Shown: positions 3,548 to 46,310 of the stretch, piece by piece
Layout of the letters: each line of letters opens with the position of its first letter
Numbering within the stretch: position 1 is the first letter of the stretch
Assembly: GCF_004010195.1 (NCBI RefSeq)
Contig: NW_025214631.1
Coordinates: 1 to 47,722 of the forward strand
Direction of reading: 5' to 3'
Length of the DNA stretch: 47,722 bases
DNA from: Chiloscyllium plagiosum
Taxonomy: Eukaryota
The notes under the pieces: model-generated
What the model was told of the DNA's origin: nothing
Seen by the model: only the letters and a program-made list of their open reading frames with translations
Databases searched by the model: none
Program-made: the position numbers and the translations under genes

Positions 3548-5620
3548 AATAGACAATAGACCATAGACAATAGGTGCAAGAGTAGGCCATTCTGCCCTTC
3601 GAGCCAGCACCACCATTCATTATGATCATGGCTGATCATCCTCAATCAGTATCCTATTCCTGTCTTATCCCCATAATCCTTGATTCCACTATCCTTAAGA
3701 GCTCTATCCAACTCTTTCTTGAAAGTATCCAGAGACTGGGCCTCCACTGCCCTCTGGGGCAGAGCATTCCACACACCCACCACTCTCTGGGTGAAGAAGT
3801 TTCTCCTCAACTCTGTTCTAAATGGCCTACCCCTTATTTTTAAACTGTGTCCTCTGGTTCGGCACTCACCCATCAGCAGAAACATGTTTCCTGCCTCCAG
3901 AGTGTCCAATCCTTTAATAATCTTATACGTCTCAATCAGATCCCCTCTCACCCTTCTAAACTCAAGCATATACAAGCCCAGTCGCTCCAATCTTTCAGCG
4001 TAAGATAGTCCTGCCATTCCGGGAATTGACCTTGTGAACCTACGCTGCACTCCCTCAAATTTGGAGACCAAAACTGCGCACAATATTCCAGGTGCAGTCT
4101 CACCAGGGTCCTGTACAGCTGCAGAAGGACCTCTTTGCTTCTATACTCAATTCCTCTTGTTATGAAGGCCAGCATGCTATTAGCCTTCTTCACTACCTGC
4201 TGTACTTGCTTACCTTCATTGACTGGTGTACAAGAACCTTCCTGAAGAAGGGCTCATGCCCGAAATGTCGATTCTCCTGCTCCTTGGATGCTGCCTGACC
4301 TGCTGCGCTTTTCCAGCAACACATTTTCAGCTCTGATGTACAAGAACACCTAGATCTTGTTGTACTGCCCCTTTACCTAACTTGACTCCATTTAGGTAGT
4401 AGTCTGCCTTCCTGTTCTTGCCACCAAAGTGGATAACCACACATTTATCCACATTAAACTGCATCTACCATGCAAATCCGTCCACTCACCTAACCTGTCC
4501 AGGTCACCCTGTCTTCTCCTAACATCCTCCTCACATTTCACCCTCCCACCCAGCTTTGTGTCTTCATCAAATTTGCTAATATTACCTTTAATACCTTCAT
4601 CTATATCATTAAGGTACATTGTAAAAAGTTGCAGTCCCAGCACTGATCCCTGCGGCACACCACTGGTAACTGCCTGCCATCCCGAAAGGGAGCCGTTTAT
4701 CACTACTCTTTGTTTCCTGTCAGCCAACCAATTTTCAATCCATGTCAGTATTTTGCCCCTAATACCATGCACCCTAAGTTTGCTCACTAACCTCCTATGT
4801 GGGACTTTATCAAAGGCTTTCTGAAAGTCCAGGTATACTACATCCACTGGATCTCCCTTGTCCATCTTCAGAGTTACATTCTCAAAAAATTCCAGAAGAT
4901 TAGTCAAGCATGATTTCCCCTTCATAAATCCATGCTGACTCTGACCTATCCTGTTACTGCTATCCAGATGTATCGTAATTTTGTCCTTTATAATAGACTC
5001 CAGCATTTTTCCCACCACTGAGGTCAGACTAACTGGTCTATAATTCTCTGTTTTCTCTCTCGCTCTTTTCTTAAAAAGTGGTACAACATTAGCCACCCTC
5101 CAATCTGCAGGAACTAATCCCGAATCTATCGAACTCTGGAAAATAATCACCAACGCATCCACGATTTCTCGAGCCACCTCCTTCAGTACCCTTTATATTT
5201 TTGGCCAGTTTACCTTCGTTTACCTTATTTTTTCTTTGCGTATTTCCTTCTTAGTAATCCTCTGTTGTTCTTTAAAAGCTTCCCAGTCCTCTGATTCCCC
5301 ACTCACCTTTACTATGTTATACTTTTTCCCTTTTGTCTTTATATGGTCCTTAACTTCCCTCGTCAGCCACGGCCACCCCTGCCTCCCCTTAGGAGCTTTC
5401 TTCCTTTTTGGAATGAACTGATCCTGCATTTTCTGCATTATACCCAGAAATACCTGCCATTGTTGTTCCACTGCCATCCCTGCTAGGATATTGCACCATT
5501 GAACTTTGGCCAGGTCCTCCCTCATAGCTCCATAGGTCCCTTTATTCAACTGAAATATTGTCACTTCCGATTCTACCCTCTCCTTTCAAACTACAGATTA
5601 AAGCTTATTGTTTTGTGGTC
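3548..5620 (-). mobile_element. CR1-type LINE, 5'-truncated, disrupted
   Basis: Minus ORFs 4392-5177 ([21 protein letters not shown]), 3646-4083 and 5220-5564; (CTATTGT)n-type tail near 3548-3572. Confidence 0.92.
4238..4336 (+). mobile_element. Short PLE terminal-repeat insertion (family A) with minimal hammerhead motif
   Basis: CTGAAGA(4242)-A-GGGC-tcat-GCCC-GAAAtgtc; 11-bp direct repeat tgtacaagaac at 4227-4237 and 4337-4347. Confidence 0.85.
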
Positions 5621-5624
5621 ACTA

Positions 5625-6020
5625 CACAAACAGAAATTGTTGGTGAAACTCAGACCATCTCAGGAAAAAGATCCAGTGACACTTCATCAGAACTGACAGC
5701 AACTAGAAAAAACTCTGCCGAATAACTTTTCAGCACATGTGTGGGGGGAGAGGTGATGGTGTGGGAAGGAGAGGTAAGCAGATAGGTGGAGATGGAGCTC
5801 AGAGAGACAGATGGAGAAATAAAACATGTAGGTAAATGAAGGCATTATAGGTGCCAGGCCATGATAGAAGAGAAGCTGAAGCAGTGATAATGAGAGCTAA
5901 GAGTAGCAGAGAATGGGCAGTTGGTGCTGAGATAATAGGCCTGAGATTAAGTGCGAATAGTGATTGTGCTAAAAACAACCCATGTCATAACAAATAAAAT
6001 CTGAAAGAACTGCAAAGGTC
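5625..6020 (-). mobile_element. Degraded PLE 3' remnant (family B terminal repeat)
   Basis: Minus strand reads cagttCTGATGAagtgtcactggatc near 5670-5696, similar to family B copies at 33975 and 44520. Confidence 0.45.
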
Positions 6021-6022
6021 TT

Positions 6023-6550
6023 TTTAATATTCCTTGGGATGTGGGCATCACTGGTTGGTCACCATGTATTAACCGTCCCTAGTTGTCTTTGAACTGAATG
6101 GCTTATTAGGCTATTTCAGAGGGCAGGAAAAGCACAGCAGGTCAGGCTGCATCCGAGGAGCAGGAAAATTGATGTTTTGGGCAGGGCTTTGGATGCAGCC
6201 TGACCTGCTGAGCTTTTCCAGCACCACTCCAATCTTGACTCTAATTTCCAGCATCTGCAGTCCTCACTTTCACCTATTTCAGAGAGCAGCCACATTGTTG
6301 TGGGTCTGGAGTCACACGTAGGTCAGACCAGTTAAGGTGACAGATTTCCTTCCCCAAAGCACATTGATAAACCAGATGGATTTTTCCAACAATGGTTTAA
6401 TGGTCATTCACAGATTCTAATTTCCCAATTATTGTTGAATTCAAATTCCACCACCTGCCCTGGTGGGATTTGAACCCAGGTCCCCAGAACACTAGCTCAG
6501 TTTCTGGATTAGTAGTCTAGTGATAATATCGCTAGGCAATCACCTCCCCC
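6023..6550 (-). mobile_element. tRNA-derived SINE (second family), interrupted by an inverted PLE repeat pair
   Basis: Minus-strand head ggggaggtgattgcctagcg..gggttcaaatccc (A/B box-like); a similar split copy lies at 20105-20725. Confidence 0.75.
6127..6273. mobile_element. Inverted pair of family A PLE terminal repeats
   Basis: aaagcacagcaggtcaggctgcatcc mirrored by ggatgcagcctgacctgctgagctttt; flanked by ctatttcagag(g/a)gcag at 6111 and 6274. Confidence 0.75.
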
Positions 6551-7690: not shown

Positions 7691-7837
7691 GTATCCTTCA
7701 TTGAATAAAGTATGAAGGGAGATGTTTGTAAGTAGAATAAGTACTGTTAGGTGTTTTAGGATGCTGGAAAAAAACAAGATGATGATATTCACTTGCTGAG
7801 ATTGATCAGATCTGAATGATTTAGGAAAGATACTTAC

Positions 7838-9120: not shown

Positions 9121-9369
9121 GATGGGTCTTGGGAATACTTGTCCAGAACATTCCCACTACCTAATACTCCTCAGGGAAGTGCAAGATTTTCAAGACCTTT
9201 AACAACACTTCTCAGTTTTCATCAATATTCCAATTCTATACCAATGACTGTTTAATCCAGATCCCATTTCAGGTGCTTTTTTCCTCCTCACAACTCACTT
9301 TCCTCTCAATCTTAAAACTGTCAGCAAATTTGCCAACAATACAGTCAGTCCCTTTGTCCAAGTGTTTGA

Positions 9370-9595
9370 TAAGACAGGGTAGGACTTACAAAATTAATGG
9401 TAGACACCTGGGGAGTGTTGTCAAACAGAAACCTAGAGGTTCAGGTTCATAGTTTCTTGGAAGTGGCATCACAGGCAGAGAGGGTGGTGAAGAATGCATT
9501 TGGTATATTTGCCTTCATTGGTCAGAGCATTGAGTACAGGGGCTGGGACGTCATATTTCAGCTGTAGGGGACATTAGTGGGGCCACTTTTGGAAG
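9370..9595 (+). mobile_element. CR1-type LINE RT 3' fragment
   Basis: agggtggtgaagaatgcatttggtatatttgccttcattggtcagagcattgagtacagg matches other copies. Confidence 0.75.
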
Positions 9596-9639
9596 GCCGC
9601 TGTCCTTCCTTACCATTGGTACAGATGTTACCATTGTCG

Positions 9640-11925
9640 AGGAGGGTCTGCCTACTGAGTCAGTATGGGTGGAAATTAGGAACAGTAAGGGAGCAGTCAC
9701 CTCTTTAGGGGTTTACTACAGGCCCCCCAATAGCAGCAGGGAGATTGAAGAAAGTATAGGTCGGCAGATTTTGGAAAAGTGTGAATGTAGTAGGGTTGCT
9801 GTAATGGGTGACTTTAACTTTCCCAATATTGATTGGAACCTCCTTCGAGCAGATGGTTTGGAAGGAGCTGTTTTTGTAAGGTGTGTTCAGGAGGGTTTCC
9901 TAACTCAGTACATTGACAGGCCGACGAGGCGAGAGGCCATTTTGGAATTGGTGCTCAGCAATGAGCCGGGGCAGGTGTCAGATCTAGTGGTGGGAGAGCA
10001 TTTTGGTGATAATGACCATAACTGCCTCACATTCTACATAGCTATGGGGAAGGAGAGAAGCAGGCACAATGGGAGGATATTTAATTGGGAAAAGGAAACT
10101 ATGATGCTATCCGACGTGCATTGGGAAGCATGGACTGGGAGCAATTGCTCCATGGAAAGGGCACTATAGACATGTGGAGACTGTTTAAGCAACAGTTGTT
10201 GCGAGTGATGCATAAATGTGCTCCTCTGAGACAGGCAAGAAGGGGTAAGATAAAGGAACCTTGGATGACGAGAGCGGAGGAGCTTCTCGTCAAAAGAAAG
10301 AAGGCAGCTTACGTAAGGTGGAGGAAGCAAGGATCTTGCTCAGCTCCAGAGGATTACAGGTAGCGAGGAAGGAGCTCAAAAATGGTCTGAGGAGAGCCAG
10401 GAGGAGGCACAAAAAAGGCTTGGCAGGAAGGATTAGGGAGAATCCAAAGGCATTTTACACTTATGTGAGGAATAAGAGAATGATCAAAGAAAGAGTAGGG
10501 ACGATAAGGGATAGCATAGGGAATTTGTGTTGGAGTCTGAGGGGGAAGGGGAAGCCCTAAATGAGTTTTTTGCTTCTGTCTTTACTAAAGAAAAGGACCT
10601 TGTAGTAAATGAAACCATTGAGGATCAGGTAAGCATGCTGGAACGGATAGAGATAGAGGAAGCTGATGTGCTGAAAATTTTGACAAACATTAAGATTGAC
10701 AAGTCGCCAGGCCCGGACCAGATTTGTCCTCAGTGGCTTTGGGAAGCGAGAAATGTGATTGTGTCGCTGCTTGCAAAGATCTTTGCATCCTCGCTCTCCA
10801 CTGGAGTCGTACCTGGGGACTGGAGGGAGGCAAATGTAATTCCTCTCTTCAAGAAAGGAAATAGGGAAATCCCTGGCAATTACAGACCAGTCAGTCTCAC
10901 ATCTGTCATCTGCAAGGTGTTAGAAAGGATTCTGAGCGATAGGATTTATGACCATCTGGAAGAGCATGGCTTGATTAAATGCAGTCAGCACGGCTTTGTG
11001 AGGGGCAGGTCATGCCTCACAAACCTTATCGAGTTCTTTGAGGATGTGACTAGAAAAGTTGATGAGGGTCGAGCTGTAGATGTGGTGTATATGGACTTCA
11101 GCAAGGCATTTGATAAGGTTCCCCATGGTAGGCTCATTCAGAAGGTCAGGAGGAATGGGATACAGGGGAACTTAGCTGTCTGGATACAGAATTGGCTGGC
11201 CAGCTGAGTACAAGATTAAGGATAGAATTCTTGGCAGTGTGGAGGAACAGAGGGATCTTGGGGTGCACCTTAAAATGGCCACCCAAGTGGACAGGGTTGT
11301 TAAGAAAGCATATGGTGTTTTGGCTTTCATTAACAGAGGGATTGAGTTTAAGAGTCGTGAGATCTTATTGCAGCTCTATAAAACTTTGGTTAGATAGCAC
11401 TTGGAATACTGTGTCCACTTCTGGTCGCCCTATTATAGGAAAGATGTGGATGCTTTGGAGAGGGTTCAGAGGAGGTTTACCAGGATGCTGCCTGGAATGG
11501 AGGGCTTATCATACGAAGAGAGGTTGACTGAGCTCGGACTTTTTTCATTGGAAAAAAGAAGGAAGAGAGGGGACCTAATTGAGGTGTACAAGATAATGAG
11601 AGGCATAGATCGAGTTGATAACCAGAGACTATTTCCCAGGACAGAAATGACTAACACGAGGGGTCATAGTTTTAAGCTGTTTGGCGGAAAGTATAGAGGG
11701 GATGTCAGAGGCGTGTTCTTTACGTAGAGAGTTGTGAGAGCATGGAATGCAGTTGTGGAAGCGAGGTCATTGGGGATATTTAAGAGCCTGCTGGACATGC
11801 ATATAGTCACAGAAATTTGAGGGTTCGTACATTAGGTTTACCTTACATGAGGATCAATGGTCGGCACAACATCGTGGGCTGAAGGGCCTGTTCTGTGCTG
11901 TACTGTTCTATGTTCTATGTTCTAG
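9640..11925 (+). mobile_element. CR1-type LINE ORF2, frameshifted, with an internal RT deletion near 11205
   Basis: ORFs 9669-10169 (YYRPP, MGDFN), 10527-11207 and 11401-11727; (TGTTCTA)n tail at ~11903-11925; the GVPQG/FADD region is absent. Confidence 0.93.
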
Positions 11926-12891: not shown

Positions 12892-12985
12892 ATTCCTGAT
12901 GAAGAGCTTATGCTCGAAACGGGGATTCTCCTGGTCTTCAAATGCTGCCTGACTGGCTGTGCTTTTCCATCACCACACTCTTCTA
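12892..12985 (+). mobile_element. Family A PLE terminal repeat with hammerhead motif (variant stem II)
   Basis: CTGATGA(12896)-A-GAGC-ttat-GCTC-GAAAC followed by family A body; cleavage triplet mutated (ggg). Confidence 0.75.
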
Positions 12986-13003
12986 TATAAACCCTTCCCT
13001 AGG

Positions 13004-14985
13004 CCATAGAGCAGTATAAGCCCTTCGGCCCTCGATGTTGCACTGACCTGTGAAACCAATCTGAAGTCCTTCTAACCTACACTATTCCATTCTCATACAT
13101 ATGTTTATCCAATGACCATTTAAATGCCTTTAAAATTGGTGAGTCTACTATTGTTCCAGGCAGTGTGTTTCACACCCCTACTGCTGTGAGTAAAGAAATA
13201 ACTTCTGACATCAGTCTTATATCTATCATCCCTCAATTTAAAGCTATGTCCCCTCAAGTGAGCCAGCGCCATCTGAGGAAATAGACTCTCACAATCCACC
13301 CTATCTAACCCTCTCATCATCTCATATATCTCAATTAAGTCACCTCTCAACCTTCTACTCCCTAACGAAAACAGCCTCAAGTCCCTCAGCCTTTCCTCAT
13401 AAGACCATCCCTCCATATCAGAAAACATCCTAGTAAATCTCCTTTGCACCCATTCCAAAACCTCCACATCCTTCCTAAAATGCGGTGACCAGAACTGCAC
13501 GCAATACTCCAAGTGTGGCCACACCAGAGTTTTGTACAGCTGCAACATGACCTCATGGCTCCAAAACTCAATTCCTCTACCAATAAAAGCTAACACACCA
13601 TAGGCCTTCTTAACAACCCTATCAACTTGGGTGGCAACTTTCAGGGATTTATGTACGTGGTCTCCAAGGTCCCTCTGCACATCCACACTACCAAGAATCT
13701 TTCCATTGACCCAGTATTCTGCCTTCCTGTTATTCTTCCCAAAGTGCATTACCTCACATTTAGCTACATTGAACTCCATTTGCCACCTCTCAGCCCAATT
13801 CTACACTTAATCCAAGTCCCCCTGCAACCTGTAACATTCTTCCACACTGTCCACTATTCCACCGACTTTAGAGTCGTCTGCAGATTTACTAATCCATCCA
13901 CCTGTGCCTGCATCTAAGTTATTTATCAAAATGACAAACAGCAGTGGTCTCAAAACAGATCCTTGTGGCACACCATGAGTAACCGGACTCCAGGCTGAAT
14001 ATTTTCCATCAACCACCACTCGCTGCCTTCTTTCAGAAAGCCAGTTTCTAATCCAAACTGCTAAATCACCCTCAATTCCATGCCTCTGCATTTTTTCCAA
14101 AAACCTACCATGTGGAACCTTATCAAAGACTTTACTGAAGTCCATGTAGACCACACCAACTGCCCGACCCTCATCTACATGCTTGGTCACTTTCTCAAAA
14201 AACTCAATGAGGTTTGTGAGACATGACCTGCCCCTGATGAAACCATGTTGACTATCTGAAATCAAATTGTTGCTTGCTAGATGATTATAAATCTTATCTC
14301 TTATAATCCTTTTCAAAACCTTTCCTACAACAGAAGTAATGCTCACTGGTCTATAATTACCTGGGTCATCTCTGCTGCCCTTCTTGAACAAGGACACAAC
14401 ATTTGCAATCCTCCAGTCCTCAGGTACTAAACCTGTAGACAATGACAACTCAAATATCAAAGCCAAAGGCTCTGCTATCTCCTCCCTAGCTTCCCAGAGA
14501 ATCCTCGGATAAATCCCATCCAACCCAGGGGACTTTTCTACTTTCACTCCTTCTAGAATTGATAACACCTGTTTGTAACTAACCTCGATCCTTTCTAGTC
14601 TAATATCTCGTATCTTGTTCTTCTCCTCTACAATATTCTCCTCTTGCTGAGTGAAAACCGATGAGAAATGTTCATTTAGCACCTTTCCGATCTCCACAGG
14701 GTCCACACTCAACTTCCCACTTCTGTCTTTGACTGGCCCTATTCCTACCCTAGTCATCCTTTTATTCCTCACATACCTATAGAAAGCTTTAGGGTTCTCC
14801 TTCATTCTATTTGCTAAAGACTGCTCATGTCCTCTCTTTGTTCTTCTTAACTCTCTCTTTAAATCCTTCCTAGCTGATTTGTAACTCTCCATTGCCTCAT
14901 CTGAACCACTCGTTTCATCATCACATAAGCCTCTTTCGTCCGCTTAACAAGAGATGCAATTTCTGTAGTAAACCACGGTTCCCTT
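13004..14985 (-). mobile_element. CR1-type LINE, 5'-truncated RT
   Basis: Minus ORFs 13807-14892 (361 aa; [15 protein letters not shown]) and 13120-13779. Confidence 0.93.
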
Positions 14986-15013
14986 ACCTTACCTTACCTT
15001 ACCTTACCTTACC
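14982..15013 (+). repeat. (CCTTA)n microsatellite, about 6 units
   Basis: ccttaccttaccttaccttaccttaccttacc at a junction between LINE fragments. Confidence 0.85.
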
Positions 15014-15014
15014 C

Positions 15015-16315
15015 ACTGAAGTAAGGCTCACTGGCCTATAATTACAAGGGCTGTTTCTCCTCCCCTTCTTGAGCAAGGGCTATCCTCCAGTTTTCTGACA
15101 TTATTCCCGTAGACAACTCACAACTCCCCGCACAACCTTCCCACTACTGTTCTTGATTGGCCCTAAACTTACTCTAATCATTCTTTTATTCCTGATAGAC
15201 CTATAGAAAGCTTTAGAGTTTTCCTTGATCCTACCTGCCAATGACTTCTCATGTCCCCTCCTGGCTGTTCTTAGTTCTCTCTTTAGGTCTTTCCTGGCTA
15301 ACTTGTAACTCTCAAGTGCCCTAACTGAGCCTCATGTCTCATCTTCACATAAGCCTTCTTCTTTCTCTTGACAAGAGATTCAACTTCCTTAGTAAACACA
15401 GCTCCCTCACTCAACCACTTTCTCCCTGCCTGACAAGGTACATATGTATCAAGAACATGGAGTAGCTGTTCCTTGAATATGCTCCATATTTCAATTGTGT
15501 CCTTCCCCTGCAGTTTCTTTCCCCATTCTATGTGTCCTAATTCTTGCCTAATCACATCATAATTACCATTCTCCCTTTCCATCATTAAAGTAAACATAAC
15601 CGAATTGTGATCACTATCACCAAAATGCTCACCTACCTCCAAATCTAACACCTGGCCTGGTTCATTACTCAGTACCAAATCCAATGTGGCCTCACCCCTT
15701 GTTGGCCTGTCTACATACTGTATCAAGAAACTCTCCTGCACACATTTGTCAAAAATTGACCCATCTAAAGTACTCGAACTATAGTATTTCCAGTCAATAT
15801 TCAGAAAAGTGGGCGGCACGGTGGCACAGTGGTTAGCACTGCTGCCTCACAGTGCCAGAGACCCGGGTTCAATTCCCGACTCAGGGAACTGACTGTGTGG
15901 AGTTTGCACATTCTCCCCATGTCTGCGTGGGTTTCCTCCCACAGTCCACAGTCCAGTCAGGTGAATTGGCCATGCTAAATTGTCCGTAGTGTTAGGTAAA
16001 GGGGTAAATGTAGGGAAATGGGTAGGTTGCGCTTCGGCGGGTCGGTGTGGACTTGTTGGGCCGAAGGGCCTGTTTCCACACTGTAAGTAATCTAATCTAA
16101 ATAAAATTAAAAACTACCCTGTTACCTTCGCTCCTATCCAGAATCATCTTTGTTACCCTTTCCTGTATATCTCTGGAGCTGTATAAAACTTCCAACAGGG
16201 CAACCTTTCCTTTCATGTTTCTAACCTCAGCAGATGAGTCTTCAAATGTCCTTTCTGCCATGTAATACTACCCTTGACTAACAATGCCACGCCTCCCCCT
16301 TTTACCACCTTTGTT
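15015..16315 (-). mobile_element. CR1-type LINE endonuclease/linker fragments, interrupted by a SINE at 15811-16101
   Basis: Minus ORF 15298-15819 (YVDRPTRGEATLDLVL..GDSDH); endonuclease sequence resumes after 16102. Confidence 0.85.
15811..16101 (+). mobile_element. HE1-like tRNA-derived SINE
   Basis: Head gggcggcacggtggcacagtggttagcactgctgcctcacag..gggttcaattccc (A and B boxes); 3' end gggccgaagggcctgtttcc shared with the LINE tail; (TAATC)n terminus. Confidence 0.9.
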
Positions 16316-16404
16316 GTTTTTACAGATAGAGAAATCTATAAATGTGGAAAATTTCTGATATGAGTCAGACGTTGAGATTATTCAAAGAAGTGAAATTAAT
16401 TTAC

Positions 16405-16749
16405 CATTAACTGTTAACATGACAGAGTATTTTGTAGATTTTCCATCTGATGTTGTTGCTTCGAGTTCATATATTCCTTCATCACTCAGCTGGATATTTT
16501 TCAGCAATAACTCCAATTTGGAGTGGGAGAAATTCACTCGGTTTTTAAAAGAATCTGAGATATATGGGATGGGGGAACTGGGTGAAAATATGAGGATGGA
16601 TCTTACTGTCTCATTTTGAATTACTCTCCACTCCAAACTAAACACTTCGTTTGGCTGACTGATGTTTTGCATCATGGGTAGGAGTACAGTTTCAAAAATC
16701 GTTCCATGTATTGTTTTCTGTTGGGCAGCTGCCAGCACTAACCTTCTCC
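16405..16749 (-). CDS. Exon encoding an N-terminal Ig V-type domain lacking the canonical Cys pair (CD2/SLAM/CD48/HEPACAM-like receptor)
   Basis: Polypyrimidine tract and acceptor tttcttttgaag| at 16750; donor AATG|gtaaat at 16404; 345 nt, phase 1-1. Translation RRLVLAAAQQKTIHGTIFETVLLP..LEWR..FKNRVNFSHSKLELLLKNIQLSDEGIYELE..VMLTVN contains the IgV W, R-V-x-F, L-x-L-x-N-I-Q and D-E-G-x-Y motifs. Confidence 0.92.
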
Positions 16750-16867
16750 CTTCAAAAGAAAGAAAAATATTCACAAAGTAAGAACATATTACACAGAACA
16801 ATCATCTCTCAAAATTTCTATTTCAGTAATTGATAAAATCTGACCTAATTTTCTACTCTAATTGTTC

Positions 16868-22288: not shown

Positions 22289-22420
22289 TAGAACATAGAA
22301 CACTACAGCGCAGTACAGGCCTTCAGCCCTTGATGTTCCACCAACCTGTGGAAGCTATCTGAAGCCCATCTAACCTACACTATTCCTTTTTCATCCATAT
22401 GTCTATCCAATGACTATTTC
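22289..22420 (-). mobile_element. LINE 3' tail fragment inserted in the array
   Basis: tagaacatagaacactacagcgcagtacaggcc..gaagcccatctaacctacac. Confidence 0.85.
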
Positions 22421-22670
22421 AATTATACGTATGTGAGTCCTGTCCCTCTCAGGATTACACATAACTCCTGCTCCTCACTACATTATAAGACACACTATCC
22501 TTCTCTGATCTATCCGTAAATCCTGTCCCAATCTGCTCTACATGTAACTCCTGTCCTTCCCTGCTCAATATGAGACCCCTCCCACCATGGCCTAAATTTG
22601 TTCCTATTCTTCCCTACTCTACAGGTGAATCCAATTCCTCTCCTGAATTCACATGACATCTGACCAACAC

Positions 22671-22752
22671 CATAGAACATAGAACATAGAAGAATACAGC
22701 GCAGTACAGGCCCTTGGGCCCTCGATGTTGCGCCGATCCAAGCCCACCTAAA
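22671..22752 (-). mobile_element. LINE 3' tail fragment inserted in the array (same subfamily as 25428-28736)
   Basis: Near-exact reverse complement of 28652-28733. Confidence 0.9.
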
Positions 22753-30256: not shown

Positions 30257-30675
30257 GATTAGATTAGATTCTCTACAGTGTCGAAATAGGCCATTTGGCC
30301 CAACAAGTCAATACCAACCCTCTGAAGAGTGACCCACCTCCCTACATTTACATTCCTTACATTCTTCTTGAAGGGCCTATGCTGAAAACATCGATTCTCC
30401 TGTTCCTCAGATGCTACCTGACCTGCTGTGCTTTTCTCAACTCCCTACATTTACCCCTGACTAAAGCACCTAATACTAGGCCAATTTAGCATGGCCAAAT
30501 CACCTGACCTGCACATCTTTGGATTGTGGGGTGAAACCGGAGCATCCAGAGGAAACCCAGGCAGACTCGGGGAGAATGCGCAAACCACACAGACAGTCAC
30601 CTGAGATGGGAATCGAACCTAGGTGCCTGGTGCTGTGAGGCAGCAGTGCTAACCATTGAGCCACTGTGCTGCCCC
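30257..30675 (-). mobile_element. HE1-like SINE containing a family A insertion
   Basis: (GATTA)n tail at 30257; head complement gctgtgaggcagcagtgctaacca..gctgcccc. Confidence 0.88.
30352..30440 (+). mobile_element. Degraded family A PLE repeat
   Basis: 14-bp direct repeat ctccctacatttac at 30338-30351 and 30441-30454. Confidence 0.8.
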
Positions 30676-30717
30676 GAAAAGAAACTACCTCTGATATCTG
30701 TCCTATATCTATCACCT

Positions 30718-32082
30718 GAAAATGTGTTGCTGAAAAAGCGCAGCAGGTCAGGCAGCATCCAAGGAGCTGGACCAGTATTGGAATTGGTCCTCCTGGGAGC
30801 AGATGCGGCAGAGATGAAAGAATTGGGAATATGGGATGGCGTTTTTACAGGGGGCAGGGTGGGAGGAGGTGTAGTCTAGGTAGCTGTGGGAGTCGGTCGG
30901 TTTATAGTAAATGTCCGTGTTGATTTGGTCGCCCGAGATAGAAATGGAGAGGTGTAGGAAGGGAAGGGAGGAGTCTGAGACGGTCCAAGTAAATTTGAGG
31001 TCGGGGTGGAAGGTGTTGGTAAAGTGGATGAACTGTTCAACCTCCTCAGACGAAGGAATTGGGAATATGGGATGGCGTTTTTACAGGGGGCAGGGTGGGA
31101 GGAGGTGTAGTGACGAAGGAATTGGGAATATGGGAGACGAAGGAATTGGGAATATGGGAATATGGCCTCCTTCTTCAAAGACCAATACCGAACAACCCAG
31201 ATGGCCTCCTTCTTCAAAGACCGCAATTTCCCCCCAGACATGATCGATGATGCTCTCCACCGTATCTCCTCCACTTCCTGCTCCTCTGCCCTTTAGCCCC
31301 AACCCTCCAATCACCACCAGGACAGAACCCCACTGGTCCNNNNNNNNNNNNNNNNNNNNNNNNNNNNNNNNNNNNNNNNNNNNNNNNNNNNNNNNNNNNN
31401 NNNNNNNNNNNNNNNNNNNNNNNNNNNNNNNNNNNNNNNNNNNNNNNNNNNNNNNNNNNNNNNNNNNNNNNNNNNNNNNNNNNNNNNNNNNNNNNNNNNN
31501 NNNNNNNNNNNNNNNNNNNNNNNNNNNNNNNNNNNNNNNNNNNNNNNNNNNNNNNNNNNNNNNNNNNNNNNNNNNNNNNNNNNNNNNNNNNNNNNNNNNN
31601 NNNNNNNNNNNNNNNNNNNNNNNNNNNNNNNNNNNNNNNNNNNNNNNNNNNNNNNNNNNNNNNNNNNNNNNNNNNNNNNNNNNNNNNNNNNNNNNNNNNN
31701 NNNNNNNNNNNNNNNNNNNNNNNNNNNNNNNNNNNNNNNNNNNNNNNNNNNNNNNNNNNNNNNNNNNNNNNNNNNNNNNNNNNNNNNNNNNNNNNNNNNN
31801 NNNNNNNNNNNNNNNNNNNNNNNNNNNNNNNNNNNNNNNNNNNNNNNNNNNNNNNNNNNNNCACCTTAACCTCCTTCCACCTATCGTATTCCCAACGCCC
31901 CTCCCCCAAGTCCCTCCTCCCTACCTTTTATCTTAGCCTGCTTGGCACACCCTCCTCATTCCTGAAGAAGGGCTCATGCCCGAAATGTCGATTCTCCTGC
32001 TCCTTGGATGCTGCCTGACCTGCTGCGTTTTCCAGCAACACATTTTCAGCTCTGATCTCCAACATCTGCAGTCCTCACTTTC
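30718..32082. mobile_element. 5'-truncated, partly inverted Penelope-like element
   Basis: Minus 30770-31045 translates to FTNTFHPDLKFTW..PFLHL..IYYKPTDSHSYLDYTSSHPAPCKNAIPYSQF (PLE RT/thumb); plus-strand continuation MASFFKDRNFP; terminal repeat with hammerhead at 31962; 17-bp duplication tcctatatctatcacct at 30701-30717 and 32083-32099. Confidence 0.9.
31340..31861. other. Assembly gap (522 N)
   Basis: Run of N. Confidence 1.
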
Positions 32083-32159
32083 TCCTATATCTATCACCTC
32101 TCAACTTAAAGCTATGCCCCCTCATGCCAACAATCACCATCCAAGGAAAACAGCTGCCC

Positions 32160-33090: not shown

Positions 33091-33617
33091 ATTCATAGAA
33101 TTCCTCCAATGTGGAAGACTGCCATTCAGCAGGTGGATTTTTCGAGTCCACACCAACCTTCCAAAGATCATCCCAACCAGACCCAACCCCATCCATATAA
33201 TGCCACATTTCCCATGGCTAATCCACCTAATCTGCACATCCCTGGACTCAATAGGCAATTTAGCATGGCCAATCCACCTAACCTGCATGTCTTTGGACTG
33301 TGGGAGTCAAAAGGTGTGGTGCTGGAAAAGCAGTGTCTGAGGAGCAGGAGAATCAATGTTTCGGGCATAAGCCCTACATCAGACATTCCTGATGAAGGGT
33401 TTATGCCCAAAACGTCAACTCTCCTGCTCCTTGGATACTGCCTGACCAGCTGTGCTTTTCCAGTGCCACACTTTTCGGCTCTGACTGTCCAGCATCAGCA
33501 GTCCTCACTTTCGCAGACGTGGGAGAAAAGACACAGACAGTCACCTAAGGCTGGAATTAAACTCAGGTCCCTGGTGCTGTGAGGCAGCAGTGCTAACCAC
33601 TGAGCGACTGTGCCACC
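33090..33617 (-). mobile_element. HE1-like SINE interrupted by an inverted family A pair (~33308-33512)
   Basis: SINE head complement at 33570-33617; body gcaatttagcatggccaatccacctaacctgca; insert centred near 33385. Confidence 0.85.
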
Positions 33618-33706: not shown

Positions 33707-33832
33707 AGGAGAAAGTGTGGACTGCAGATGCTGGAGATCAGAGCTGAAGAAGGGCTTATGCCCGAAACATCGATTCTCCTGCACCTTGGATGCTGCCTGA
33801 CCTGCTGCGCTTTTCCAGCAACACATTTTTCA
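33707..33832. mobile_element. Family A PLE repeat with inverted 5' segment and hammerhead motif
   Basis: CTGAAGA(33744)-A-GGGC-ttat-GCCC-GAAACatc; 15-bp duplication gctactgtccaaact at 33692-33706 and 33833-33847. Confidence 0.88.
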
Positions 33833-34319: not shown

Positions 34320-35910
34320 TCATAGTCATAGAGATGTACAGCACAGAAACAGACCCTTTGGTCCAACTTGTCCATGCTAATCAGATATCCTAACCTAATC
34401 TAGTCCCATTTGGCAGCACTTGCCCATATCCCTGTAAAGGAAGAAATGGGTACTGCAGATGCTGAAGATTAGAGTCAAGATTAGAGTGGTGCTGGAAAAG
34501 CACAGCAGGTCAGGCATGAACCGAGGAGCAGGAAAATCGATGTTTCGGGCAAAAGCAATTCATCAAGAATAAGGATGGATACATGCAAGTCCTGGGCCTC
34601 CTCCACCACCACTCCCTCACCACCCAATGCCTGGACGAAGAATGCTTCATCTTCCGCCTCGGTATCCTTCAACCCCATGACATCAATGTGAACTTCACCA
34701 GTTTCCTCATTTCCCCTCCCCCCACTTTACCCCAGTTCCAACCTTCCAGCTCAGCACTGTCCTCATGACCTGCCCCACCTTTCAATCTTTCATCCCACCT
34801 ATCCGCCCACTCTCCTCTCTGACCTATCATCTCACACCACCTCCATCCAACTGTTGCATTCTCAGCTACCTTTCTCCCCCCAGCCCCTTCCCATTTATCT
34901 TTCCATCCCCTGAGGCTCCCAGCCTCATTCCTGATCAAGGGCTTTTTGCCCGAAACATTGATTTTCCTGCTCCTTGGATGCTGCCTGATGTGCTGTGTTT
35001 TTCCAGCACCACTCTAATTTTGATTCATATCCCTGTAAACCCTTCCTATTCATATACCCATCCAGATGCCTACTAAATGCTGTAATTGTACCAGCCTCCA
35101 CCACTTCCTCTGGCAAGGCATTCCATACACACACCACCCTCTGAGTGAAATATTTGCCCCTTAGGTCCCTTTTATATTTTTCTCCACTTACCTTAAACCT
35201 ACACGCTCTAGTTCTGGACTCCCCCTCCCAAGGGAAAAGACCTTGTCTATTTATCCTATCCATGCCCCTCATGATTTTATAAACCTCCTATGCTCCAGGG
35301 AAAACAGCCCCAGCCTATTTAGCCTCTCCCTATGGCTTAAGTCCTCCAACCTTGGCAACATTCTTGTAAATCTTTTCTGAACCCTTTCAAGTTTCACAAC
35401 ATCTTTCCAACCTGCAACTGTATTTTCAAGGAACTATGTACCTGCACTCAAAGGTCTCTTTGTTCAGAACACTCCCTAGGACCTTACCATTAAGTGTGTA
35501 AGTCCTGCTCTGATTTGCTTTTCCAAAATGCAACACCTCACATTTCTCTAAATTAAACTCCATCTGTCATTCCTCAGCCCATTGGCCCACTTGAACAAGA
35601 TCCTGTTGTACCCTGAGGTAACCTTCTTCGCTATCCACTGCACCTCAAATTTTGGTGTCATCTGCAAACTTACAGACTATACCTCCTATGTTCACATCCA
35701 AATCATTCAAATAAATGACGAAAAGCAGTGGACCCAGCACTTTTCCTTGTGGCACTCCATCGGTCACAGGCCTCCGGTCTGAAAAGCAACCCTCACCAAT
35801 CCCTGTCTTCAACTTTTAAGCCAGATCTGTATCAAATGGCTAGTTCTCCCTTTATTCCATGAGATCTAACCTTGCTAACTAGTCTCCCATGAGGAACCTT
35901 GTTGAACACC
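34320..35910 (-). mobile_element. CR1-type LINE 3' portion split by a PLE insertion
   Basis: Minus translation FTQRVVCVWNALPEEVVEAG; (TATGAC)n-type tail at 34320. Confidence 0.85.
34439..35025 (+). mobile_element. PLE 3' fragment (GIY-YIG endonuclease C-terminus and terminal repeat) with an inverted repeat at its 5' end
   Basis: 34583 translates MQVLGLLH..LDEECFIFRLGILQPHDINVNF; 14-bp duplication catatccctgtaaa at 34425-34438 and 35026-35039. Confidence 0.88.
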
Positions 35911-35961: not shown

Positions 35962-36175
35962 GATGTGGAGGTGTCGGTATTGGGCTGGGGTGGATAAAGT
36001 CAGATGTCACACAGCACCAGGTTATAGTCCAACAGGTTTACTTGGAATCACAAGCTTTCAGAATGCTGCTTCTTCGTCAGGTGAAGTCACTTCAGCTGAC
36101 AAAGGAACACACTCTGAAAGCTTGTGATTTAAAATAAACCCGTTGGATTATAACCTGATGTCATGTGACTTCTGA
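35962..36175. mobile_element. Family C PLE repeat, palindromic inverted pair with hammerhead motifs
   Basis: Arms of about 85 bp centred near 36088; minus strand reads TCAC-CTGACGA-AGAAgcagcaTTCT-GAAAGCTT-GTGA. Confidence 0.8.
36048..36084 (-). ncRNA. Minimal hammerhead ribozyme motif (family C)
   Basis: Helix I UCAC/GUGA, core CUGACGA and GAAA, helix II AGAA/UUCU, palindromic AGCU, UU cleavage site. Confidence 0.65.
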
Positions 36176-37563
36176 TAGATTCACTTGAAAGTATTTGCTT
36201 ATAATCCATTTTGGCCAAATCAAATCTGCTCTTATTAAAATCAGCCTTCCCATAGGTTAAGATCTTTGATTTCAGGCCCACTCTTGTCATTTTCCATAAC
36301 AATCTTGAAAGTAACAGAGTTATGAGCATTGTCTGCAAAGTGATTCCCCCACTGACAGCTCAACCACTTGTCCAGCTATGTTCCCTAAAATTACAGTCGT
36401 CTCTCCATCTTGTAGGGCCATTTGTGTACTGGCTTAGAAAGCTGTTTGGGATGCATTCTAACAATTCTGCCCCCTCTAAATTCAAATTTGTAATACAATC
36501 CAATCTAAAATTTTACTGTACTTAAGTACATATGACTACAATAAATCCATCAAATCAAACTCTAGCTGTATTGAGGTTGTTAGTCACTACCATCAACAGA
36601 ATAAGATGTTGATTAACAAAGGATACATGAGATAAACTGAAATTCCAGATTAATAATTCTGAATTAACCGAACCCATACACATTTGTTATATAACCACAC
36701 CAAACCAATCATAGAATAGCTAGAAATAGAGTGAACATTTCGTTGTTGTCTACAGGAAGACTGGAGGATAGCAAATGTTGTTCCCTTGTTCAAGGAGGGG
36801 AGTAGAGACAACCCTGGTCATTATAGACCAATGAGCCTTACTTCGGTTGTGGGTAAGGGTTTGGAAACATTATAAGAGATAGGATTTATAATTATCTAGA
36901 GAGGAATAAGTTGGTTAGGGATAGTCAACACAGTTTTGAGAAGGGTAGGTTGTACAATACAAACCTTTTTGAGTTCTTTGAGAAGGTGACCAAACAGGTG
37001 GATGAGGGTAAAGCAGTTGATGTGGTGTATATGGAGTTCAGTAAGGCATTTGATAAGGTTCCCCATGGTAGGCTATTGCGCAAAATACAGAGGCATGGGA
37101 TTGAGGTGATTTAGCAGTTTGGATCAGAAATTGGCTAGCTGAAAGAAGACAGAGGGTGGTGGTTGTTGGGAGATGTTCATCCTGGAGTTCAGTTACTGGT
37201 GGGGTACTGCAAGGATCTGTTTTGGGTCCACTGCTGTTTGTCATTTTAAAAATGACATGGATGAGGGCATAGAAGGATGGGTTAGTAACTTTGTGGATGA
37301 TACTAAGTTCGGTAGAGTTGTGGATATTGTCGAAGAATGTTGTAGGTTACAGAGGAACATTGATAAGCTGCAGAGCTGGGCTGAGAGGTAGCAAATGGAG
37401 TTTAATGTAGAAAAGTGTGAGGTGATTGAGTTTGGAAGGAGTAACAGGAATTCAGAGTACAGGGCTAATGGTAAGATTTTTGGTAGTGTAGATGAACAGA
37501 GAGATCTCGGTGTCCAAGTATATAGATTCTTGAAAGTTGCCACCCAGGCTGATAAGGTTATTA

Positions 37564-37688
37564 GGAGAAAGTGAGGTCTGCAGATGCTGGAGATCAGAGC
37601 TGAAAATGTGTTGCTGGAAAAGCAGAGCAGGTCAGGCAGCATCCAGGGAACAGGAGAATCGACGTTTCGGGCATAAGCCCTTCTTCAG
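37564..37688 (-). mobile_element. Family A PLE repeat insertion
   Basis: 13-bp duplication gataaggttatta at 37551-37563 and 37689-37701. Confidence 0.9.
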
Positions 37689-37690
37689 GA
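37655..37690 (-). ncRNA. Minimal hammerhead ribozyme motif with intact core
   Basis: CUGAAGA-A-GGGC-uuau-GCCC-GAAACGUC; all core nucleotides present, palindromic ACGU helix III, GUC cleavage triplet; helix I is weak or truncated by the insertion boundary. Confidence 0.7.
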
Positions 37691-38699
37691 TAAGGTTATT
37701 AAGAAGGCATACAGTGTGTTAGCTTCTATTGGTAGAGGGATTGAGTTTCAAAACCATGAGGTCATGCTGCAGCTGTACAAAACACTGGTGCAGCTGAACT
37801 TGGAGTATTGTGTACAGTTCTGGTCACCGATTATAAGAAGAATGCAGAAGCTTTAAAAAGGGTTCAGAGGAGGTTTATTGGGATTTTGCCTGGTATGGAG
37901 GGAAGCTCTTACAAGGAAAGACTGAGGGACTTGAGGCTGTTTTCATTGGAGAGAAGAAGGTTGAGAGGTAATGTAATTGAGCCATTTAAGATAATCAGGG
38001 GGTTAGATAAGTTGGACAGTGAGAACTTGTTTCCTCAGATGACGATGGCTAGCACAAGGGGGCATAGCTTTAAATTGAGGGGTGATATATATAGGACAGA
38101 TGTCAGAGGTAGTTTCTTTACTCAGAGAGTAGTAGGGGTGTGGAACACACTGCCTGCAACAGTAGTAGACTTGCCAATTTTAAGGGAATTTAAATGGTCA
38201 TTGGATACACATATGACCGAGAATGGAATAGTGTAGGTTAGATGGGCTACAGGTTGGTTTCACAGGTTGGCACAACAGTGAGGGTCGAAAGGCCTGTACT
38301 GTGCTGTATTGTTCTATGTTCTATTTTGAGTCTGGCATGATCCTTTTTCAGTCTTCCTTCCAGTTCTGAAGAATAGTTATATTGGACTCAATGTTAGCTC
38401 TATTTTTCTCTCTCCACAGATACTGTCAGATGTGCTGAGTTTCTCCAACATTCTCATTTCCAGAATCCACAAAACCTTGATTTTGTTACAGTAGAGTATC
38501 ACAGAAATAGGTTCATTTTTTCCTAGAGCTGTGACTATGCTGGTCTCACCCTCATCCAGAATGAGTAAATCCAATGGGATATGTTTTACACAGATGAAAC
38601 TCGGTAGTTTCCCATCTTTGACGAGATCTAGCTTCAAGCTGAAATGTGTGGAGGTGGAAATTGAAGCAAGGAATGGGTCACAGCTAAGTCTGTGCCTAC

Positions 38700-40525: not shown

Positions 40526-42547
40526 GGTGTGCAGCCAGAAGTCGTGGTGCACATTGGCACCAACGACATAGGCAGGAAGAGGGGTGGGGAGGTCATTCAG
40601 GAGCTCAGGGAGTTAGGCTGGAAGCTAAAAGCTAGGATGGACAGAGTCATCATCTCTGGGTTGTTGCTGGTGCCACGTGACAGTGAGGCAAGGAATAGGG
40701 AGAAAGTGCAGTTGAACACGTGGCTGCAAGGATGGTATAGGAAGGAGGGCTTCAGGTATTTGGACAATTGGACTGCATTCTGGGGAAGGTGGGACCTGTA
40801 CAAGCAGGACGGGTTGCACCTGAACCAGAAGGGCACCAATATCCTGGGAGGTAGGTTTGCTAGCACTCTTTGGGAGGGATTAGGAGAGCTAAGAGAGGGC
40901 ATGAAAAATCTTTGGTGGGTAGGATCAAGGATAACCCCAAGGCATTTTATGCATATGTGAGAAACATGAGAACGAGGGTAGGTCCGATCAAGGTGGATGG
41001 GATCCGGACTTGTAGTCCAGCAAGTAGGCTAGCTGTTTGTCAGGCTGTTCAAGAATGTAGCACTGTGAAGAAGGTAGCACTGACAGGGAGTACTTGCGGA
41101 CACAGAGATGGGTTCAAGTGTGTATACTTCAACGCAAGGAGTATCAGAAATAAGGTGGGTGAACTTAAGGCGTGGATCGGTACCTGGGACTACGATCTTG
41201 TGGCCATCACGGAAACGTGGATAGAAGAGGGACAGGAATGGTTGTTGGAGGTTCCTGGTTACAGATGTTTCAGTAAGATTAGGGAGGGTGGGAAAAAAGG
41301 AGGAGGGGTGGCATTGCTAATTAGAAATGGTATAACGGCTGCAGAAAGGAAGTTTGAGGGGGATCTGCCTCTGGAGGTAGTATGGGCTGAAGTCAGAAAT
41401 AGGAAAGGTGCAGTCACCTTGTTGGGTGTTTACTATAGGCCCCCCAATAGCAGCAGAGATGTGGAGGAACAGATTGGGAAACAGATTTTGGAAAGGTGCA
41501 GAAGCCACAGGGTAGTCGTCATGGGTGATTTCAACTTCCCAAATATTGATTGGAAGCTCTTTAGATCAAGTAGATTGGATGGGGCGGTGTTTGCGCAGTG
41601 TGTACAGGAAGCTTTTCTAACGCAGTATGTAGATTGTCCGACCAGAGGGGAGGCCATATTGGATTTGGTACTCGGTAATGAACCGGGACAAGTGATGGGC
41701 TTGTTAGTGGGTGAACATTTTGGTGATGGTGACCACAATTCTGTGACTTTCACCTTGGTTATGGAGAGAGATAGGTGTGTGCAACAGGGTAGGCTTTACA
41801 ATTGGGGGAAGGGTAAATACGATGCTGCAAGAGAGGATCTGAGGAGCATAGGTTGGGACCATAGGCTGTCAGGGAAGGATGTCATTGAAATGTGGAACTT
41901 TTTCGAGGAACAGATACAACGTGTCCTTGATATGTATGTACCTGTCAGGCAGGAAAGAGATGGTCGTGTGAGGGAACCTTGGTTGACGAGGGAGGTTGAA
42001 GGTCTTGTAAAGAGGAAGAAGGAGGCTTACATAAGGCTGAGGAAACAAGGTTCAGACAGAGCATTGGAGGGATACAGGATAGCCAGGAGGGAGCTGAAGA
42101 AAGGAGCTAAAGATCTTTGGCGGGTAGGATCAAGGATAACCCCAAGGCCTTTTATGCATATGTGAGAAACATGAGAATGACGAGAACGAGGGTAGGTCCG
42201 ATCAAGGACCGTAGTGGGAGACTGTGTATTGAGTCGGAAGAGATAGGAGAGGTCTTGAATGAGTACTTTTCTTCAGGATTTACAAATGAGAGGACCGTAT
42301 TGTTGAAGAGGAGAGTGTGAAATGGACTGGTAAGCTCGAGGAGATACTTGTTAGGAAGGAAGATGTGTTGGGCATTTTGAAAAACTTGAGGATGGACAAG
42401 TCCCCCGGCCTGACGGGATATATCCTAGGATTATGTGGGAAGCAAGAGAGGAAATTGCGAGCCGTTGGCAATGATCTTTTCGTCTTCACTGTCAACAGGG
42501 GTGGTACCAGGGGACTGGAGAGTGGCGAATGTTGTGCCCCTGTTCAG
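40526..42547 (+). mobile_element. CR1-type LINE with ORF1 SGNH-esterase segment and ORF2 endonuclease, 3'-truncated
   Basis: 40529: VVVHIGTNDIG..DGLHLN (SGNH block III GxND and block V DxxH); 40870-42165 endonuclease motifs; ends at NVVPLF. Confidence 0.93.
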
Positions 42548-44230: not shown

Positions 44231-44514
44231 TTTCAAAAATTCATTCAGGGATATGGGTGTCATTGACTGGCCCAGCAGTACTGTCCACCCCTAATTGCAA
44301 AAAATAATTACCGTTCCCTAATAGTTTTGTGGGTATATCTGCACTTGGACTACAGCAGTTCAGGGAGGCAGCTCACTACCACTTTCTTAAGGGGCAGACA
44401 ATAAATGTTGGGCTCACCCCAGCATTAACCACATCTCGTGAGTGAATATAAAACTGGTTAAAGGATGTTTGAGCAGAGTGGATTTGAGAACAACTCTGTC
44501 CTGTTCTCAAAGAA

Positions 44515-44600
44515 TTCAGAATAGGAAGGGTCACTGGACCTGAAATGTTAATTTTGATTTCTCTTCACAGATGCTGCCAGACCTGCTGAGGTTTTCCAGG
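44515..44600 (+). mobile_element. Family B PLE repeat fragment
   Basis: gaagggtcactggacctgaaatgttaa..cacagatgctgccagacctgctgag. Confidence 0.65.
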
Positions 44601-45411
44601 CTGCTTAGGAGTGATACTTATTATCTTACAACAAAAGGGAAGCCGATCCAGTCAATCAAATCTGTGTAATTGTCTGGCTGCTTAACTTTAGCCAAATGCT
44701 TTACCTATTAAAAACAACTTTCAGAAATGTTTTATGCATTCCAAAACACTGCTGATGTTAGTGTTTCAATTCAATCTTTCAGGATCCAGTCTCTTGAACT
44801 AAGAATATTGTGGGATTTAAACAAAGGAGTTGAGGGACAGATAACCCATTATTGAAATGACAGGGAGGCCCAGATACAAGGGGCCATACGGCTTCCTGTT
44901 GTTCCTCATGATCCTACAAATTTGTGAATTTACCAGAAAATCTTTAACATTAAGGTTGAAAAGTAAATTATCTGTTTAATGGGCATTTGACACTCTGGCT
45001 GGTCTAACAGTTTCTAATTGAATAAGACAAACACTCACAGGCCTTTCTGATTGGAATGAACTTTCAACATTCCCTGTTCAACCTTCCTGTTGAGAAAAGC
45101 CCCAGAGAATGAGTGAAATTGAAAGTCCCTCTTGGTGTCATATAGTCAGAGTTCCTCATAGTGAACCATTACCGAGAATAAATTATTGTTCTTTAGACAT
45201 GGCAGACTGACTTTCTCTTCAGAATCACAGAATAATTAAAAACCAGAAGGAGGACATTCTACCCGTCATGAAAGTGCAACTCTCCAAATGAGAAATTCAC
45301 TGAGTGCCATTCAACCATCTCAGCCATTACATTCCAGATCCTAACCACTCAAATGAACCTGGTTGTTGGAGGTTAGTTATCTCAGATCCAGGACATCTCT
45401 GCAGAAGTTAT

Positions 45412-46050
45412 GAAAGAGAGAAGTGCAGCACAGGAACAGGCCCTTCGGCCCTCCAAGCGTGTGCCAATCATCATGCCCTGACTAAACTGAAAAACAAACC
45501 TTCTGCCCTTATTTGATCCGTATCCTTCTATTCCCTCCCTATTCATGTAACCATCCAGATGCCTCTTAAATGTCACCAATGTGCCTGCTTCCACCATCTC
45601 TTCTTGCAGTGCACTTCAGGCTCCTATCACTCTCTGCATGAAAAACATCTCTCACACATCTCTCTTAAACTTTCCCCATCTCACCTTGAACCTGTGCCAC
45701 CCCTCCTTGTAATTGAAGCTTCAACCCTGGGAAAAAGCCCCTGACTATCTACCCTATCTATGCCTCTCATAATTGTGTAGACCTCTATCAGATCTCCTCT
45801 CAGCTGTATTCTTTCCAGTGAAAACAATCCTTTTTTTTAACATTTCCTCATAACCAATGCCCTCAAGACCAGGCAACATCCTGGTGAACCTTCTCTGCAC
45901 TCTCCAAAGCTTCCAAATTCTTCCAGAGGTGTGGCAACCAAAACTGCACACAATATTCCAAATGCAGCCAATCTCAGGTTTTATAAAGCTGCAACATGGT
46001 TTGCCAACTCTTGTACTCTATGCCCAGGCCAACAAAGATATGTCTGCTAT
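45412..46050 (-). mobile_element. CR1-type LINE 3' portion
   Basis: RVQRRFTRMLPGLEG; VEAGTLVTFKRHLDGYM. Confidence 0.85.
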
Positions 46051-46054
46051 ATAT

Positions 46055-46310
46055 GTGAAATTGAGGACTGCAGATGCTGGAGATCAGAGTCAAGAGTGTA
46101 GTGCTGGAAAAGCACAGCAAGTCAGGCAGTATCTGAGGAGCAGGAGAATCAACATTTCGTGCCAAAGCTCTTAATCAGAATCCTGACAAAGGGCTTTTGC
46201 CCGAAATGTCGATTTTCCTGCTCCTCGGATGCTGCCTAAACTGCTGTGCTTTTCCAGCACCACTCTAATCCAGAATCTGGTTTCCAGCATCTTCAGTCAT
46301 TGTTTTTAAC
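46055..46310. mobile_element. Head-to-head inverted pair of family A PLE repeats
   Basis: Arms of about 125 bp centred near 46180; degenerate hammerhead on each strand. Confidence 0.85.

Follow-up and report, generated by a model that had tools for sequence, protein, structure and literature searches.

Short pLTR copies of a Penelope-like element in Chiloscyllium plagiosum start preferentially four bases before a hammerhead core and with a surplus of G

The window analysed here is the whole stretch of 47,722 nt of contig NW_025214631.1 from Chiloscyllium plagiosum, in which short dispersed repeats bearing a hammerhead ribozyme motif (family A) had been noticed in a first-pass annotation. Family A is the pseudo-long terminal repeat (pLTR) of an endonuclease-bearing Penelope-like element (PLE). 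The 5' ends of its copies accumulate four bases before the hammerhead core, and G is in surplus at the base preceding this start. The short copies are probably run-off cDNAs, synthesised from two internal sites back to the start of a capped mRNA at position -4.

According to this reading, reverse transcription would be initiated about 95 or about 130 nt from the mRNA's 5' end, at one of two internal sites, copy back to the capped end four bases before the core and run off. If the mRNA starts at -4, run-off products of about 95 or 130 nt are expected, which matches the sizes of the stubs. Joining of the run-off cDNA to the second target strand would give a solo stub, while joining to another cDNA, itself primed at the alternative site from the opposite strand, would give a head-to-head pair with a one-sided tail. 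A jump to another point of the RNA would produce a pLTR, a variable piece of the 5' open reading frame (ORF) and a further pLTR. The hammerhead, occupying the first 35 nt of the RNA, would be carried along. Copies linked to the body of the element would come either from a seamless jump or from priming on a 3' or tandem pLTR. The PLE enzyme of Anolis nicks and extends both strands in vitro from two internal start sites near the ORF start, and requires RNA downstream of these sites (PMC11167929). Such RNA would be present at the 5' pLTR-ORF junction.

Distribution of 5' ends

Position 0 was assigned to C3 in the core of the hammerhead, which is the C in CTGA, and the predicted cleavage thereby lies between +27 and +28. 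The genome sample comprised 159 10-kb stretches located at fixed positions along contigs C1-C30 (1.59 Mb including 80,571 N, out of 3,556 Mb). This sample contained 273 pLTR segments and therefore, by scaling, the family has very roughly 500,000 insertions genome-wide. As 28 segments with a 5' flank reaching an edge or N were dropped, 245 were usable for 5' ends. Segment ends were taken from local alignments and are uncertain by a few bases, more so in older copies.

Among 136 copies reaching the zone from -10 to 0, 76 stop inside it, a rate of 0.051 per nt. The per-base rate was 0.005-0.008 in +11..+50, 0.022 in +1..+10, 0.015 in -20..-11, 0.006 in -50..-21, 0.004 in -100..-51 and at most 0.004 beyond. 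Within ten bases before the core, stops are 8-14 times as frequent as just upstream. Plotting the 5' ends relative to the hammerhead, as proposed in the first-pass annotation, thus gave a non-uniform distribution. It had been argued there that uniform ends would refute a separate family of short copies; this proved indecisive, as the ends are non-uniform and yet no separate family exists (see below). Extreme 5' truncation, also offered there, describes the outcome correctly but missed the sharp pile-up at -4 with its G excess.

Public contigs (X15) and RNA reads (X19, 2% of a polyA single-cell run) were mapped onto one real copy. In both, which come from independent runs, the best-listed 5' loose end with an unrelated flank was -4, and depth rises several-fold at -4 in the public runs. 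The commonest start is the A of TCATTCC, a motif around -4 which we take to fit the initiator consensus. Position -4 is likely to be a capped RNA polymerase II start, and the transcription starts of Penelope and Chlamys lie in the pLTR as well (PMC2377424, PMC8557442). A downstream-promoter match at the right distance from the start was too weak and was dropped.

The boundary of the copies had been supposed to be set by ribozyme cleavage. Genome-wide, 159 copies begin at +28 after two non-template bases against 177 at the +33 control, totals that are only roughly comparable as the two exact-count patterns differ. No peak was observed at the cleavage site, and the supposition is not supported. 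A mild cluster at +26..+29 in the sample (10/245) was not upheld by these genome-wide counts.

Surplus of G before position -4

The base at -5 was counted by whole-genome exact matching of one 29-mer of a young subfamily starting at -4. It was the template C in 17,449 matches, G in 3,955, A in 1,854 and T in 747. G thus makes up 3,955 of the 6,556 non-template cases (60%), compared with 26% expected from base composition. A control start at +1 is a better baseline than base composition because the opposite arm is G-rich; here the preceding base was G in 21, T in 16 and A in 63 of the first 100 of 843 listed matches, counted by hand. At a control start of +33, G preceded in 14 and A in 86 of the first 100 listed matches (hand count). 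Plain mutation at -5, read from body-linked copies, gave T 70, A 18 and G 12 in the first 100 of 168, also by hand. An extra G at the 5' junctions of full-length L1 has been attributed to the cap (PMC11702581). Neither a fixed start with G excess nor a cap, strong-stop or jump mechanism was found described for PLEs in the literature searched, of which some was available only in part and which left subscription journals and Repbase notes outside.

At several loci (L295, L296, L302, L306, L307, also L081, L154 and L217), the first few bases of the element are directly duplicated at the 5' junction. It looks as if the enzyme had realigned at the end of the template, reminiscent of repeat addition by telomerase.

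3' ends, head-to-head pairs and jumps

The 3' ends are bimodal, at about +90 and about +126. Of 56 head-to-head rows (one duplicate), 44 combine a long and a short arm, five have two short arms and one two long arms, while six were unclassified. The one-sided tail of such pairs was already known (PMC8557442, PMC3846280). Of 49 long 3' ends sampled, 16 go on to match the continuation into the 5' untranslated region (UTR) for at least two more bases, where about 6% would do so by chance; the template thus ran past the modal 3' end.

Twenty 5'-ORF loci were collected as the best matches to one query and are thus a non-random draw; in 14 of them the ORF piece, ending between about +266 and about +680, is joined to a new pLTR. 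The rejoin point falls at -8..-3 in 11 of these jumps (one by eye), and at +3, +37 and -173 in one each. No 3' body was found upstream of the ORF-linked pLTR in any of 19 readable loci.

The arms of one head-to-head pair were often mutual closest relatives on the tree (L052, L250, L265), which is consistent with one template for both arms. L273 and L274 (G000:C1:3.888 and 3.892 Mb) show the same insertion and flanks twice, 3.7 kb apart, representing a local duplication or an assembly repeat.

Evidence against a capped start and alternative explanations

Several observations weigh against run-off from a capped end. The pile-up is broad: another 38 ends lie at +1..+10, and ends read from alignments carry an uncertainty of a few bases. 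Helix I has its outer end at -4 too, so that the start site coincides with a feature of the structure. Dropping the GG and TG classes reduces the surplus to 1,173 G against 747 T, about 2.4-4.5-fold depending on the baseline. Forty loci of the G class were inspected, in two sets of 20 taken from the top of the listing, one with A or C preceding the G, the other with neither. By eye, the G was clearly untemplated in only five (L277, L278, L280, L288, L299). In about 17 of the 40 it is shared with the target or the opposite arm (microhomology), five are short self-duplications, one represents a substitution in a body-linked copy and the remainder are complex. The loci with a shared G fit a cap, without proving it, because a cDNA ending in a cap-templated C would favour microhomology containing G. 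The -5 counts of the body-linked copies given above (G in only 12 of 100) show no G scar. In the X19 reads no transcript start was observed, there being no place where many molecules begin; the reads lie on both strands, 82-94% of them continue into the flank, and coverage falls to a few reads past the pLTR. Discrete ends and listed joints at the cleavage site were likewise absent from X19, a polyA library poorly suited to circular or unit-length RNA.

An extension of the run-off reaction into a full strong-stop and strand-transfer cycle is possible but unlikely. Here, cDNA primed inside the capped 5' end would run off and jump to the RNA's 3' end, that end being made by the ribozyme. Cleavage in the downstream copy would leave a 32-nt redundancy (-4..+27) that could guide the jump and regenerate the pLTR, and the stubs, numbering hundreds of thousands, would be failed transfers. 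A G scar marking such a jump was looked for in the body-linked copies and was not found.

One alternative is that copies primed at the 3' pLTR underwent ordinary 5' truncation because the reverse transcriptase paused at the hammerhead fold; this appears improbable. It agrees with the position of -4 as the last pair of helix I, which in one subfamily is a perfect 4-bp helix ending there, with the 38 ends at +1..+10, and with the heavy 5' truncation usual for these elements (PMC8557442). However, a roadblock should halt the enzyme where it meets a helix from the 3' side (+19 or +31), not once the 5' strand has been copied, and stop rates in +11..+35 were 0.005-0.008 against 0.051 at -10..0. Helix I is weak and missing from the predicted minimum-energy fold. 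A pause leaves both the G excess and the lack of upstream body at the 19 ORF-linked pLTRs unexplained.

The RNA end at -4 may instead come from processing, by another nuclease, splicing or trans-cleavage, the G being a cap-independent terminal addition by the enzyme. We regard this as quite improbable, though it would yield the same pile-up and jump junctions, and the 5' end of helix I coincides with an intron end in D. virilis (PMC4209133). Body-linked copies have no AG acceptor before -4 and short copies share no upstream exon, while the sequence before -4, as read, is unable to provide helices I and III of a hammerhead in trans. Moreover, cap-independent addition predicts a G excess at the internal starts +1 and +33 also, where it is absent.

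That the short copies are a separate non-autonomous, retrozyme-like family, copied through ribozyme-cut and possibly circular RNA, is highly improbable, and for these copies the idea is already largely refuted. In a tree of 58 short and 36 body-bearing copies (94 rows, 88 columns) the two labels changed 28 times compared with 28.8 when shuffled, which speaks against an independent lineage of short copies; the nearest-neighbour figure was 0.55 against 0.61. Subfamilies and loop haplotypes are common to both kinds. No fixed-period head-to-tail arrays were found in the 1.59 Mb sampled of 3,556 Mb, and the 24 same-strand neighbour rows within 1 kb have no common period. The separate family suggested by the first-pass annotation is therefore not borne out, since short and body-bearing copies intermix and arrays are lacking. 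Short copies do outnumber long ones, an origin from PLE pLTRs is reported for non-LTR retrozymes, one cartilaginous fish included (bioRxiv 10.64898/2026.07.22.740005), and at G000:C16:42817619-42817930 six listed matches about 47 bp apart, each starting at +28, appear to form a small tandem pLTR array. Against these points stand the absence of a peak at the cleavage site, the single hammerhead in one unit and unit ends that differ from the cleavage ends.

Identity of the element

A Penelope-like origin and independent insertion with duplications, both anticipated in the first-pass annotation, agree with the order pLTR, reverse transcriptase (RT) and GIY-YIG endonuclease and with duplications of 8-17 bp above the shuffled control. 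In the sample and the window together, 25 of the 137 unpaired segments carried a target-site duplication, as did 42 of the 59 paired rows, compared with 10 of 681 shuffled pairings. The length of the duplications is variable (8-17 bp).

A search with the sequence upstream of 34930 recovered copies extending 0 to about 1,350 further bases, a 5'-truncation series, and the extended copies translate to the RT and GIY-YIG regions. The sequence downstream of the repeat recovered the 5' ORF. Locus L211, interrupted by gaps and breaks, spans about 3.2 kb and reads inverted arm, pLTR, ORF, pLTR. Pfam detected RVT_1 with E 9.5e-9 (L198) and GIY-YIG with E 3.5e-4 (L059), the latter below the curated cut-off; no match was found for three of the PLE fragments submitted, and a family reported on window 30778-31047 was spurious. 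RT followed by a C-terminal GIY-YIG within a single ORF was seen in L211, L140 and L135, and no intact ORF was recovered.

The translations of L059, L148, L157 and L205 contain a C-X4-CxxC linker. A CX2-5CxxC linker between RT and endonuclease occurs in Neptune and Nematis and is absent in Penelope/Poseidon (PMC8557442, in the text available). The linker of the element appears to be of Neptune type, a clade placement by motif only, as the linker is common to Nematis. Taken by itself, the element belongs to a known class and is ordinary for it, its architecture having already been published.

Hammerhead fold

Family A had been proposed to carry a minimal hammerhead whose helix III is palindromic. 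A minimal descriptor of this motif, which is of type I, gave 98 matches in the 1.59-Mb sample and none in one shuffle, in agreement with the proposal; at least four families, whose stems differ around a common core, contribute to these matches. Four family A segments of the window pass it. An Rfam scan returned no hammerhead family at E<=1, and its miRNA matches are hairpins formed by inverted pairs. The predicted fold is supported for family A from its sequence.

The covariation proposed for stem II stood in part. GAGC/GCTC at 12904 and the variation of the loop were confirmed, as was CpG decay of ACGT, but repeated compensation was not; the change belongs to a single subfamily. One pair of helix II has changed from G-C to A-U, with both sides altered in 8 of 136 copies that group together on the tree as one subfamily event, against 10 single-side changes. 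Subfamily variation sits at N7, in the loop and at the helix I mismatch. Folding of the monomer gives helix II, and the helix III palindrome could pair two units, the predicted dimer at -3.1 kcal/mol being suggestive only. Low cleavage activity is reported for such minimal motifs (PMC4209133), and for the Anolis element cleavage is reported to be protein-assisted and dispensable for insertion (PMC11167929).

At least three other hammerhead repeat families have the same core with different stems, at window 36042-36085 (-) and about 44525-44600 (+) and in loci L077, L081, L065, L085 and L103. Helix I changes on both sides were seen by eye in two of the other families.

Family A copies in the window

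Copies were present at every place listed in the first-pass annotation, from 4238 to 46055, and the flanking duplications of 11, 13, 14 and 15 bp were exact. The description of the copies as ORF-less units of 100-250 bp does not apply to 31960 and 34439/34930, which carry coding fragments.

Four copies are solo stubs. The first, 4238..4336 (+), starts at about -4/-3, has a short 3' end (about +94) and is flanked by the 11-bp duplication at 4227 and 4337. The copy at 12892..12986 (+) belongs to an older subfamily with the compensatory stem II GAGC/GCTC, starts at -4 and has an 8-bp duplication. At 30352..30440 (+) the core is decayed and a 14-bp duplication lies at 30338 and 30441. The stub at 37564..37688 (-) has a long 3' end (+124), a 13-bp duplication and a complete core at 37688-37661, the only one among window copies that keeps GAAACGTC. 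Several stubs are nested in copies of long interspersed nuclear elements (LINEs), this last one for example.

Head-to-head pairs were found at 6127, 33308, 33707, 34439 and 46055. The pair at 6127..6273 lacks the core; its arms start at about +13 and +42, and its 16-bp duplication has one mismatch. In 33308..33516 the arms start at 0 and -5, with only a 7-bp candidate duplication. At 33707..33832 an arm with the long end (minus strand, +84..+126) meets one with the short end, which starts at 0, and the pair has the 15-bp duplication, while in 46055..46310 the arms start at about 0 and -4 and no clear duplication longer than 6 bp was found. The fifth, 34439..35025, encloses body sequence and includes the C-terminal end of the endonuclease: an inverted pLTR (34439-34579) is followed by the 3' end of the endonuclease and the 3' UTR (34581-34926) and a further pLTR, within a 14-bp duplication.

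The copy at 31960 is the end of a 1.37-kb composite insertion (30716..32086) with RT-region fragments. It is composed of an inverted pLTR arm, inverted and direct pieces of the RT region, a gap, 3' body and a pLTR at 31958-32086, flanked by a duplication of 17 bp including overlap. In this body-linked context the initiator-like TCATTCC lies at 31956..31962 (+), and the A at 31958 corresponds to -4, the putative transcription start. The assembly gap inside the insertion spans 31311-31865. Since gaps are frequent in young long copies (L178, L188, L211), long copies are probably under-assembled.

Other features of the window

Many decayed LINE copies, which we take to be CR1-like, are present at 25326-28363, about 700-3050, 9534-11900, 13120-15850, 36800-38300, 40864-42165 and 46400-47470. 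In one of them (25326-28243) Pfam identified apurinic/apyrimidinic (AP) endonuclease and RT. A diverged array with a 28-bp period and strong pyrimidine skew occupies 21279-24100. The open frame at 16382-16801 (-) matches an immunoglobulin V-set domain (E 2.6e-8), with a weaker match to the 2B4 receptor family; a host gene for a cell-surface receptor probably has one of its exons here.

Significance and comparison with known systems

Many short, dated insertions in one genome record where cDNA synthesis starts and stops, and a fixed start with surplus G hints at the copying mode of a poorly understood class of elements. Should the start be a capped RNA end, a single reaction would account for solo stubs, for inverted repeats tailed on one side and for partial tandems, and clear predictions could be made for the in vitro system that already exists. 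The results also caution against annotating such stubs as retrozymes or short interspersed nuclear elements (SINEs).

The element resembles the endonuclease-positive (EN+) PLEs of the Neptune clade in RT followed by GIY-YIG, the DKG motif, the C-X4-CxxC linker and the pLTR, as well as in the adjacent inverted copy, the tail of 30-40 bp at one end, variable duplications and heavy 5' truncation (PMC8557442, PMC3846280). In contrast to these, as far as the available text describes them, most insertions here are cut to 95-250 bp, with 5' ends piled at one base with G excess. Poseidon of Anolis carolinensis (PAc) is comparable in its two internal reverse-transcription start sites defining the tail, extension of both strands, a hammerhead close upstream whose cleavage is dispensable for insertion and the absence of RNA-seq ends at the cleavage site. 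PAc belongs to a different clade and its ORF starts in stem II, whereas the ORF here lies about 160 nt after the core; cDNA end positions and solo stubs are not treated in the available text (PMC11167929).

The minimal type I hammerheads of metazoan PLEs have the same core, the extra base between 9 and 10.1, G10.1-C11.1, a palindromic helix III and a short helix I, and are mostly single dispersed motifs attributed to truncated elements. Family A differs from them in its 4-bp helix II and in a U-U mismatch of helix I in most subfamilies (PMC4209133). The searched supplement text of that paper gave no match for shark, Callorhinchus, Leucoraja or skate. Surplus G at the 5' junction is shared with full-length L1 insertions (PMC11702581).

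Non-LTR retrozymes are alike in the type I hammerhead, pLTR origin and many dispersed monomers, but are fixed-period tandem units processed at the ribozyme (PMC7229834, bioRxiv 10.64898/2026.07.22.740005). Unlike them, family A copies are non-tandem, are not bounded by the cleavage site and form no separate lineage. In LTR elements, minus-strand strong-stop DNA is a short cDNA that is primed near the 5' end of the RNA, runs off and then transfers. The reaction proposed here would differ in being target-primed, with neither tRNA primer nor integrase, and its run-off product would often integrate as it is.

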